This document shows positions 1 through 4,590 of a stretch of 4,590 nt of DNA, piece by piece (position 1 is the stretch's first letter; every line of letters starts with the position of its first letter). The DNA is from a virus (lineage: Duplodnaviria; Heunggongvirae; Uroviricota; Caudoviricetes). A program made the translations under genes and the position numbers. The stretch lies in IMG/VR virus record IMGVR_UViG_2734482538_000008. One strand, 5' to 3'. Under the pieces are notes generated by a model, which saw nothing but the letters and a program-made list of their open reading frames with translations, was not told the origin of the DNA and ran no database searches.

Positions 1-79
1 GCTTTGAACTCTTTAGAGTAACGTTGGGTTTTTCTGCTCATTATTAGCTCCTTCTGATGCCATTCTATTTCAGGAAGGA

Positions 80-782
80 GTGTCCGTTAAACTCAGGCTA
101 CCTCAGGTTATTCGCTTCTGGGCATGGGCGGATCAACAAATGATAGACGGTAATGCAGATTGTAACGCTCGCGGCGTTACAAAAAGTGCAATAGATCGCA
201 TCACTTTTATGTCTGGTTTTGCTGATGCGTTAATTCAGGTTGGATGGCTGGTCGAAAATGACGGAGGGCTTTCTCTACCTAACTTTGAACGTCATAACGG
301 AAAAAGCTCTAAAAAAAACGGGCGGTTACAAACGAGCGAGTAACAAAAATACGCGAACTGAAACGAAAAGGTAACGCTGCCAGCGTTACACAAACGGATC
401 AAAAAGCGTTACCAGAGGAAGAGGAAGAGGAAGATCTAAATACTGATCTCCCCCTCGCCAAAAACGAGCGTCTAAAAAATTCGAGCCGGAGGCTATTGAG
501 CTGCCCGATTGGTTGCCGGAAACACTCTGGCATGAGTGGGTCCGGTTCAGACAGGCATTGCGAAAACCGATTCGAACGGAGCAGGGCGCTAACGGGGCGA
601 TACGGGAACTGGAAAAATTCCGTCAGCAGGGTTTTACACCTGAGCAGGTGATTCGACACAGCATCGCCAATGAATACCAGGGCCTGTTCGCGCCGAAAGG
701 TGTTCGGCCTGAGACGTTGCTCCGACAGGTTAACACCGTCTCGTTGCCGGACAGTGCGATCCCGCCAGGCTTCAGGGGGTAA
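80..782 (+). pseudogene. Phage replication initiator (O-like / replisome-organizer type); reading frame broken twice as sequenced
   Basis: Frame-2 ORF 80-343 (GTG start at 80, AGGAAGGA at 72-79) ends ...GWLVENDGGLSLPNFERHNGKSSKK. Protein-like translation then continues in frame 1 (about 319-477: RAVTNERVTKIRELKRKG...EEEEEEDLNTDLPLAKNERLK) and in frame 0 (about 478-782: KFEPEAIELPDWLPETLWHEWVRFRQALRKP..., stop TAA 780-782). Both frame switches fall at homopolymers: A8 at 311-318 and the C5/A5/A6 runs at 450-479. The stop lies 6 nt before the helicase-loader ATG, the usual initiator/loader arrangement. Domain family is pattern recognition only. Confidence 0.55.
162..412. repeat. Cluster of dyad-symmetric GTAACGC / GCGTTAC repeats (iteron-like, candidate replication origin inside the initiator gene)
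   Basis: Two full 19-bp palindromic sites, GTAACGC-tcgcg-GCGTTAC (162-180) and GTAACGC-tgcca-GCGTTAC (371-389). An extra GCGTTAC half-site sits at 406-412 and a weaker GTTAC...GTAAC pair at 325-344. That is five exact copies of one 7-mer (either orientation) within about 250 bp, where well under one is expected by chance. I found only one other exact copy in the window (2365-2371). Confidence 0.4.
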
Positions 783-788
783 CGGACC

Positions 789-1540
789 ATGAAAAATATT
801 GCGACAGGCGGCGTTCTGGAACGCATCCGCCGACTGACCCCGCCACATGTAACCGCCCCATTCAGAACGGTAGCGGAGTGGCGCGAGTGGCAACTTGCTG
901 AAGGCCAGAAACGTAGCGAGGAGATCAACCGCCTGAATCGCCAGTTGCGGGTGGAAAAAATTCTGAATCGCTCAGGCATCCAGCCGTTGCACCGTAAATG
1001 CTCGTTTGCGAATTACCAGGTGCAGAACGACGGCCAGCGATACGCGTTAAGCCAGGCGAAATCCATCGCCGATGAACTGATGACCGGGTGTACAAATTTT
1101 GCGTTCAGCGGAAAACCTGGTACCGGGAAGAATCACTTAGCGGCAGCTATCGGGAATCGCCTGCTGAAAGACGGTCAGACAGTGATTGTGGTTACCGTGG
1201 CTGATGTTATGAGCGCCNNNNNNNNNNNNNNNNNNNNNNNNNNNNNNNNNNNNNNNNNNNNNNNNNNNNNNNNNNNNNNNNNNNNNNNNNNNNNNNNNNN
1301 NNNNNNNNNNNNNNNNNNNNNNNNNNNNNNNNNNNNNNNNNNNNNNNNNNNNNNNNNNNNNNNNNNNNNNNNNNNNNNNNNNNNNNNNNNNNNNNNNNNN
1401 NNNNNNNNNNNNNNNNNNNNNNNNNNNNNNNNNNNNNNNNNNNNNNNNNNNNNNNNNNNNNNNNNNNNNNNNNNNNNNNNNNNNNNNNNNNNNNNNNNNN
1501 NNNNNNNNNNNNNNNNNNNNNNNNNNNNNNNNNNNNNNNN
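789..1540 (+). CDS. DnaC/IstB-family replicative helicase loader (phage P-like; resembles Rac YdaV / E. coli DnaC from memory); 3' end inferred
   Basis: ATG at 789 is 6 nt after the initiator stop. The visible 143 aa (789-1217) include Walker A FSGKPGTGKNHLAAAIGNRLL (GKPGTGKN at 1110-1133) and ...TVIVVTVADVMSA, closely matching the DnaC P-loop region as I remember it. The gene runs into the N-run at 1218. The end coordinate of about 1540 is an estimate from the typical family length of roughly 245-250 aa, not observed. Confidence 0.85.
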
Positions 1541-2561: not shown

Positions 2562-3248
2562 ATGACCCCAATAAACATATTTATGACAGTTGCTGATTTC
2601 AAACGGCCCAAATTGGAGCTCCCAAACGGGGCAAACAAACTACTACTGCACTCTTGCTGTGCTCCATGTTCCGGTGAGGTGATGGAGGCGCTTCAGGCCT
2701 CGGGAATCGACTACACCATCTTTTTCTACAACCCGAACATTCATCCTCAGAAAGAGTATTTAATTCGTAAGGATGAGAATATTCGCTTTGCTGAACAACA
2801 CGGCGTGCCGTTTATTGATGCTGATTACGACACAGACAACTGGTTTGAACGAGCCAAAGGAATGGAATGGGAGCCCGAACGAGGGATCCGTTGCACCATG
2901 TGTTTTGACATGCGTTTTGAGCGGACAGCGCTGTACGCCGCTGAAAATGGTTTCAGTGTGATCAGCAGTTCACTGGGCATTTCACGCTGGAAAAATATGC
3001 AGCAGGTTAACGACTGTGGGCGGCGAGCCGTCGCGCATTATCCGGGCATGGTGTACTGGGATTATAACTGGCGCAAGCAGGGCGGCTCGTCCCGTATGAT
3101 TGAAATCAGCAAGCGCGAAAAATTCTATCAGCAGGAATATTGTGGCTGTGTGTATTCTCTGCGCGATACCAATCTACACCGCAAATCTCAGGGACGCCCT
3201 CTTATCAAAATTGGTCAACTCCACTACGGTAAAGAAGAGAAGGAGTGA
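2562..3248 (+). CDS. queH: QueH-like epoxyqueuosine reductase homolog (DUF208 family), 228 aa
   Basis: Translation carries the N-terminal [14 protein letters not shown] motif, then [21 protein letters not shown] and QEYCGCVYS. This cysteine pattern is what I recognise as the DUF208/QueH family. Assigned from memory of the family, not from a search. Start could be ATG 2562 or ATG 2583; neither has a clear SD. Stop TGA at 3246-3248. Confidence 0.8.
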
Positions 3249-3395: not shown

Positions 3396-3681
3396 NNNNN
3401 NNNNNNNNNNNNNNNNNNNNNNNNNNNNNNNNNNNNNNNNNNNNNNNNNNNNNNNNNNNNNNNNNNNNNNNNNNNNNNNNNNNNNNNNNNNNNNNNNNNN
3501 NNNNNNNNNNNNNNNNNNNNNNNNNNNNNNNNNNNNNNNNNNNNNNNNNNNNNNNNNNNNNNNNNNNNNNNNNNNNNNNNNNNNNNNNNNNNNNNNNNNN
3601 NNNNNNNNNNNNNNNNNNNNNNNNNNNNNNNNNNNNNNNNNNNNNNNNNNNNNNNNNNNNNNNNNNNNNNNNNNNNNNNNN
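3396..3681. other. Run of 286 N (assembly gap or masked sequence)
   Basis: Directly visible. It lies between a candidate promoter plus hairpin (3270-3354) and an intrinsic terminator (3712-3763), so whatever that unit encodes is hidden. Confidence 0.99.
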
Positions 3682-4211: not shown

Positions 4212-4565
4212 ATGGCACATATACAACTGGTCAAACAAACCTCTTCCGGATTACTTCTCCCGGCGACGCCGGAGAGTTGCGATTTTCTGCATCAAATCAA
4301 AATAGGTGAGTGGATACACGCAGACTTTAAGCGTGTGTGTAACTACGCATTCCACAAGCGTTTTTTCAAACTCCTGCAACTGGGTTTCGATTACTGGACT
4401 CCGGTCGGTGGGGCGATCACGCCTCGCGAACGAAAACTGGTGTCCGGTTTCGTTGATTACCTGTGTGAATCAGTAGGCCGGGAACATACGCCAGCTCTGA
4501 GCGAAGCCGCAGAGCAATTGAGGTGTACTGGCAATAGCGGACACTACCATTTGTTCTTTTTTTAA
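4212..4565 (+). CDS. Hypothetical nin-region protein, possibly YbcN/DUF1367-like (117 aa as sequenced; may be truncated)
   Basis: GGAGA at 4201-4205 sits 6 nt before ATG 4212. Translation MAHIQLVKQTSSGLLLPATPESCDFLHQIKIGEWIHADFKRVCNYAFHKRFFKLLQLGFDYWTPVGG... resembles my recollection of DUF1367/YbcN-type prophage proteins (low certainty). The TAA stop (4563-4565) uses the last base of a T7 run (4557-4563). Confidence 0.55.
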   Translation: MAHIQLVKQTSSGLLLPATPESCDFLHQIKIGEWIHADFKRVCNYAFHKRFFKLLQLGFDYWTPVGGAITPRERKLVSGFVDYLCESVGREHTPALSEAAEQLRCTGNSGHYHLFFF

Positions 4566-4590
4566 GCAGCCATCTGATGATATTTTTCCC

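Follow-up and report, generated by a model that had tools for sequence, protein, structure and literature searches.

The closest described relatives of the locus analyzed here are the YdaU-family replication initiators of E. coli, each encoded by one 789-nt CDS (262 aa) lying between ydaT and the DnaC-like gene ydaV. Proteins of this type are named ‘hypothetical protein’ (WP_038340159.1) or ‘phage replication initiator YdaU family protein’ (WP_001737256.1; PGAP). The intact homolog aligns with PHROG 2509, ‘replication initiation protein’ (1–262 of 277 profile positions, E 1.2e-89), and its residues 77–236 are matched by PHROG 678, ‘replication initiation O-like’. Searches of Pfam and NCBIfam returned no family for the intact initiator beyond a weak match of its DnaT-like tail. 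Residues 170–262 (positions 513–782 of the DNA analyzed here) resemble the C-terminal domain of DnaT, a primosomal protein of host replication restart (PDB 2ru8, E 9.5e-5; 9zbt, E 3e-4), a likeness that reaches the terminal NTVS-PDS-IPPGFRG and includes a nearly identical tail, PDSxIPPGFRG. The role of replication initiator is a predicted one, drawn from family annotation, gene order and the DnaT-like domain.

A second relative is the 285-aa YdaU (Pfam DUF1376) from the Rac prophage of E. coli K-12. It likewise lies upstream of a DnaC-like YdaV, and its C-terminal 124 residues are 81% identical to the intact homolog, whereas its N-terminal domain is unrelated to that of the homolog. DUF1376 (PF07120) gave no match to the intact 262-aa homolog at E values up to 10, while a K-12-type YdaU from a Shigella sonnei draft contig (L008) matched it at E 2.7e-26. 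This pattern of a shared C-terminal and an unrelated N-terminal part indicates that the intact homolog is a mosaic, the N-terminal module of which presumably binds the origin. It also suggests a two-module initiator in which a variable N-terminal module would serve the origin and a DnaT-like C-terminal module would work with the helicase or its loader.

Insertion sequences are the other element of the comparison. IS600 is one of five IS families that have expanded in all Shigella, and 50% of S. sonnei pseudogenes are caused by insertion sequences, with a further 12% carrying an insertion sequence plus other inactivating mutations (Hawkey et al., 2020; PMC7373316).

The DNA considered here, referred to as the window, is a 4,590-nt stretch of a Caudoviricetes virus record (IMG/VR IMGVR_UViG_2734482538_000008). 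Megablast of window positions 1–1217 against 5,426 complete E. coli genomes identified 680 genomes that cover at least 80% of the query, and the best match is 98.8% identical over 105–1217, where it holds 1121 bases against 1113 in the window. Tblastn of an intact 262-aa E. coli homolog against the window yielded three high-scoring segment pairs (HSPs) in three frames (E 9e-63 to 1.5e-76; Table 1), a match that, judged by these alignment scores, is far beyond chance. The locus also occupies the position characteristic of the family, upstream of a DnaC/IstB-like helicase loader and downstream of cro and ydaT (contigs L001, L002 and L004). Positions 106–782 are the 3′ seven-eighths of a gene predicted to encode a YdaU-family phage replication initiator. 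The functional members of the family are read in one uninterrupted frame; the window copy is broken by an IS600 at codon 36, by a run of eight A residues (A8) and by a 10-bp deletion, so that this locus is almost certainly a pseudogene of a prophage replication initiator, hit several times in the course of ordinary genome decay in a Rac-like lambdoid prophage of S. sonnei. The data gathered contain no evidence against this reading.

Table 1. Coordinates of features in the 4,590-nt window.
Feature	Position	Strand	Basis or remark
IS600 (IS3 family), left end	1–105	−	megablast matches labelled ‘IS3-like element IS600 family transposase’
HSP 1, query residues 33–105	98–316		tblastn, frame 2; 97% identity
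GGT, one copy of the 3-bp target-site duplication	106–108		IS600 insertion into codon 36
Initiator pseudogene piece 1, codons 36–105 of the 262-aa protein	107–316	+	frame of 80; tblastn and DNA alignment
Heptamer sites	160–182, 371–389, 405–413, also 324–345		palindromes and half-site
A8 run, first frameshifting lesion	311–318	+	three-way DNA alignment; A6 in intact E. coli genes
HSP 2, query residues 104–162	313–492		tblastn, frame 1; real identity stops at ...DLPL
Initiator pseudogene piece 2, codons 106 to about 149	319–448	+	frame of 82; tblastn
HSP 3, query residues 152–262	447–779		tblastn, frame 3; 99% identity, E 1.5e-76
10-bp deletion junction, second frameshifting lesion	449–455	+	three-way DNA alignment; one TCCCCCT copy left, intact TCCCCCTAAATCCCCCT
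Initiator pseudogene piece 3, codons about 154–262 and TAA	456–782	+	frame of 81; DnaT-like C-terminal domain
Hypothetical trans-frame peptides of the spliced reading			SSKKNRAVTNER; LK/KFEPEAIELPDW
ydaV, DnaC/IstB-like helicase-loader gene, 5′ part	789–1217	+	Pfam IstB_IS21 E 1.1e-6; remainder N-masked
Second IS600, right end	4519–4590	−	terminal repeat TGAGGTGTACTGGCAATAGCGGACAC at 4519; same orientation as first

The original prediction, made from the DNA alone, held that region 80–782 is an initiator gene whose only protein-like reading requires two −1 frame changes, both at A-rich homopolymers, and suggested alignment of an intact homolog as a check. The list of open reading frames and the three forward translations contain no single frame that covers 80–782. 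The frame of position 80 is open up to 343, that of 82 is protein-like from about 313, that of 81 is open from 447 to a TAA at 780–782, and the last two are both open across 447–651. Over about 107–782 the need for three frames is borne out by the three HSPs, and a single homolog does align across all of them. The first switch had been correctly placed at the A8 run, since 684 complete E. coli genomes have six A residues (A6) there, and the splice proposed at this point, ...NGKSSKK/RAVTNERV..., is the exact sequence of the intact protein. The registers given for the two heptamers, A_AAA_AAC at 313–319 and A_AAA_AAT at 474–480, are likewise accurate, as are the runs that contain them (A8 at 311–318, A6 at 474–479).

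The start proposed for the gene fared differently. Window positions 1–105 are the terminal part of IS600 and show no alignment to the initiator gene in a three-way DNA alignment, so both the GTG at 80 that had been taken as the start and the residues read from it (MSVKLRLPQ) are IS600 sequence; truncation of the gene by IS600 was absent from that account. The orfA start of the element is an ATG at 41–39 on the minus strand, its terminal inverted repeat ends ...CCTCA at 105, and the three IS600 copies compared are identical up to 105 and divergent beyond it, which makes 105 the last IS base. A complete 1.26-kb IS600 is found at 4764–6026 of contig L004, where 4806–5962 contain a 100-aa HTH_Tnp_1 ORF and a 272-aa rve ORF; IS600 is also the PGAP label of the element. 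The element has TG...CA inverted repeats, an orfA/orfB transposase and a 3-bp target duplication, as IS600 does; its ends read TGAGGTAGCC... and TGAGGTGTAC..., and GGT is duplicated. A 3-bp target duplication is what an IS3-family element would be expected to make. On the upstream side of the element, L004 reads ...GGGAAGGT as far as the boundary with TGAGGTG, and on the downstream side it continues with GGTTATTCGC after CCTCA; the intact gene has GGGAAGGTTATTCGC. Native initiator codons restart at V36 (107–109), and the first 35 lie upstream of IS600 in full-length contigs such as L004.

The same junction also occurs in another setting. Two S. sonnei draft loci (L008 and L011) carry an identical junction of IS600 and truncated initiator with other neighbours, namely a complete Rac-type ydaU (DUF1376)-ydaV pair directly upstream of IS600 and a DUF1627 gene downstream, an arrangement suggestive of recombination, with either two prophages or copies of IS600 as the partners.

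The first frameshifting lesion is a change in length of an A tract. Among the 684 complete E. coli genomes with this segment, the best match to 270–360 has a 2-base gap and agrees at 89 of 91 bases; this implies A6 in E. coli, and A8 is carried by none of these genomes. This search used a 91-nt query in ‘distant’ mode, a 61-nt megablast query across A8 having returned no match, possibly owing to the low-complexity filter and the 28-base word size. In other S. sonnei contigs (L012–L014), which lack IS600 at codon 36, the tract is A9, a length that keeps the frame and brings in one more Lys. With the IS removed in silico, the window locus has its nearest relatives in these contigs, from which it differs by 3 substitutions and the A9/A8 gap in about 1,840 nt. 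One of them (L014) has a separate IS600 at the equivalent of window ~408, some 300 nt deeper in the gene, indicating that the same gene was struck twice, independently, in different isolates. The lengths 6, 8 and 9 amount to at least two changes of the A tract, a pattern that slipped-strand mispairing would be expected to leave in a gene free of selection; A8 could have arisen from A6 directly (+2) or by way of A9 (A6 to A9 to A8, the last step being −1).

The presence of A6 in E. coli, A8 in the window and in-frame A9 in S. sonnei contigs, all among very close relatives, could also be taken as the mark of phase variation, in which slipped-strand mispairing at a hypermutable tract would turn the initiator on and off. 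Such a role is very improbable, because the occurrence of A6 in all 684 E. coli genomes and of A8 on 492 contigs means that the tract is stable within lineages, because the two further lesions would not be reversed by any change in tract length, and because differences of this kind are what a decaying, unselected gene would show.

The second frame change had been assigned to the A6 run at 474–479, but this run and its surroundings (TCTAAAAAATTCGAG) are identical in intact genes and, on that comparison, the run is ancestral and unchanged. The lesion lies about 25 nt upstream and is a 10-bp deletion: an intact TCTCCCCCTAAATCCCCCTCG has become TCTCCCCCTCG in the window, one 10-bp unit (TCCCCCTAAA) having been lost between two 7-nt direct repeats, TCCCCCT. 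The deletion is present in none of the 532 E. coli genomes that match 420–480, in which all full-length matches have 70–71 bases against 61 in the query. The switch could be misplaced because both frames are open over 447–651; as a result, the ‘AKNERLK’ of the proposed second splice is an out-of-frame reading, the true one being (N)PPRQKRASKKFEPEA and the native one (N)PPRQKRASK. The view that both lesions are homopolymer events thus stands for the A8 run and fails for the second site. More generally, a slippery-looking heptamer in the overlap of two open frames can mask the true lesion, and comparison with an intact homolog resolves its position.

Between the two lesions, an acidic linker in the second pseudogene piece is encoded by a GAGGAA repeat (414–434). 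This poly-Glu hexamer is present in 3 copies in the window and in most E. coli, in 2 copies in FDAARGOS_943 and in 6–7 copies in some 4.8-Mb S. sonnei contigs (variable loci L003, L006, L007, L009 and L010), a variation that reflects either real repeat instability or assembly noise.

The original prediction had favoured sequencing error or prophage decay over ribosomal slippage. Errors at homopolymers in an otherwise intact gene are a natural suspicion, given that an A run, a context that is error-prone on some platforms, is the site of one of the two frame changes, and given that the number of GAGGAA units differs in long contigs (L006, L007, L009 and L010), where it could partly be assembly noise. 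Three kinds of observation speak against it. The second lesion is a 10-bp deletion and the gene is also split by a 1.26-kb insertion sequence, neither of which is a homopolymer error. The IS junction, the A8 run and the deletion junction recur verbatim in all eight independent assemblies that were read, which range from 55-kb draft contigs up to 4.8-Mb contigs, and the three-way DNA alignment shows no indels other than the IS boundary, the longer A run (A8 against A6) and the 10-bp deletion. Finally, the exact 87-aa product of 80–343, which spans the IS600 junction and the A8 run, is found on 492 contigs (481 blocks of the protein collection), under names that include ‘putative bacteriophage protein [Shigella sonnei]’, UniRef A0A2Y6EAI8_SHISO and FORC11_0721. 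Since all three lesions occur in all eight assemblies and the exact 87-aa product occurs on 492 contigs, sequencing error is very unlikely, to the point of being practically dismissible, and of the two explanations favoured earlier it is decay into a real pseudogene that holds. Both indels are real, derived and fixed in a large S. sonnei lineage. Two of the eight assemblies match the three unmasked segments of the window at 100% identity. The IS600/initiator junction was not found in a collection of contigs with one genome per species, and our guess is that this collection holds no S. sonnei genome with the locus.

Programmed −1 ribosomal frameshifting, by which A_AAA_AAC (313–319) and A_AAA_AAT (474–480) would together restore a full-length initiator, had already been placed last among the explanations and is unsupported here as well, the intact relatives being single-frame with A6. 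Both heptamers do fit the X_XXY_YYZ pattern in the incoming frame, and a −1 slip at 313–319 would bring back the native reading, lengthened by one residue. However, the E. coli homologs examined are annotated as intact, single-frame CDSs in which the first site has A6, and intact genes use the outgoing frame to read the second heptamer; these two facts mark the heptamers as a by-product of ancestral Lys-Lys codons. The real second frame change also lies 25 nt upstream of the A6 run, so a slip at 474–480 would leave 8–9 wrong residues. Initiation presents a further obstacle, as the start and first 35 codons are missing, the GTG at 80 lies inside IS600 sequence, and the purine-rich AGGAAGGAG at 72–80 overlaps this GTG and leaves no spacer. 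The downstream sequence, which is identical in unshifted homologs, is predicted to fold no better than shuffled sequence (z −0.93 for 319–400; z −1.95 for 481–560, where 8 of 200 shuffles were as good). In E. coli, A_AAA_AAC and A_AAA_AAT are weaker slip sites than A_AAA_AAG. Recoding at this locus is therefore scarcely conceivable.

The initiator gene has been inactivated at least three times, in whatever order. Insertion of IS600 into codon 36, with duplication of GGT, parts what remains of the gene from its promoter, its start codon and its first 35 codons; the A run after codon 103 has 8 bases in place of 6, a change that shifts the frame; and loss of TCCCCCTAAA between two 7-nt direct repeats shifts it again. 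Replication slippage is the probable origin of the A8 run and the 10-bp deletion, lesions that can themselves be read directly in the DNA. With these three lesions no full-length initiator can be made, and the locus is a dead gene kept only by descent. An intact ydaV beside a dead initiator is what recent, unselected decay would be expected to leave.

Stray products may still arise, either from the 87-aa or 67-aa ORFs or as a C-terminal domain initiated at TTG 513. It is a highly improbable speculation that the A run was once an on/off switch for initiation of prophage replication, or that the DnaT-like domain (513–782) is still made alone and modulates the loader or host replication restart; tract-length polymorphism (A6, A8, A9) and an intact ORF are what these two ideas draw on.

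The surroundings of the pseudogene are a mixture of intact and damaged genes. The gene ydaV begins 6 nt past the stop at 782, and the claim that the downstream helicase loader is intact is upheld by contig L004, which agrees with the window wherever the latter is unmasked and encodes a 248-aa product 100% identical to E. coli WP_000789009.1. The N runs at 1218–1561 and 3396–3681, which lie over the 3′ half of ydaV and over the region of hokD (hok/sok), are masks and do not give true lengths, which are 316 and 281 nt in L004. A prophage-borne gene for epoxyqueuosine reductase QueH (2562–3248) appears intact (Pfam PF02677 in L004; PGAP name in E. coli); its product is annotated as 221 aa, against 228 aa for an ORF begun mechanically at the first ATG, 2562. 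An Rfam search of the window returned no match.

Upstream of the window, ydaT (about 4195 in L004, equivalent to 2936 in L001) is frameshifted by the loss of 1 nt in comparison with E. coli, and its called product has 101 aa, not 140 aa; the deletion is common to the sister allele with A9. At the other end, the second IS600 cuts a DUF1367 gene (4212–4565), the translation of which departs from its E. coli counterpart at ...SEAAEQ. This makes the window the 4.4-kb stretch between two direct IS600 copies, in form a composite-transposon-like layout. The gene map of L004 contains more IS copies around the locus and, with the ydaT deletion and the cut DUF1367 gene, these point to general decay of the prophage.

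The pseudogene also retains what may be the sites on which its product once acted. The window has 6 copies of the heptamer GCGTTAC/GTAACGC, 5 of which lie within 162–412 in the initiator gene; 0.34 copies are expected in the whole window, and 6 were reached in none of 200 shuffles. They form two palindromes, TTGTAACGC-N5-GCGTTACAA and GTAACGCTG-N-CAGCGTTAC, plus a further half-site, and both palindromes also encode N-A-x-x-V-T. These repeats are candidate initiator-binding sites, that is, a candidate origin inside the initiator gene as in lambda O.

Proper annotation would treat this locus as a single pseudogene bearing three lesions, rather than splitting it into small ‘bacteriophage protein’ ORFs. 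The locus is of little importance beyond annotation, and it provides a clear case of IS600 and slippage indels inactivating prophage replication in S. sonnei.

Placed beside known systems, the window copy is nearest to the E. coli YdaU-family initiator (WP_038340159.1 and WP_001737256.1, PHROG 2509), with which it shares about 99% DNA identity over the retained part, the same neighbours (a cro-like gene, ydaT, initiator, ydaV, DUF977, QueH and hokD), the same stop codon and the same 6-nt gap before ydaV. It differs from that gene by the IS600 that splits codon 36, by an A8 run where the latter has A6, and by the lack of 10 bp at 449–455. The lambda O/P module has the same order, initiator and then helicase loader; lambda O is a two-domain initiator with an acidic or flexible linker, as is the intact homolog, and the lambda origin lies inside the initiator gene, where the window has its cluster of palindromic repeats, a candidate origin. 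Unlike lambda P, however, the loader of the window lineage is DnaC/IstB-like, and the likeness to lambda O seen here is one of a PHROG 678 match and of arrangement rather than of close sequence kinship. With its IS600 and further frameshifting indels, the locus belongs to the class of IS-driven pseudogenes already described in Shigella (Hawkey et al., 2020; PMC7373316), and is an instance of this known mode of decay.
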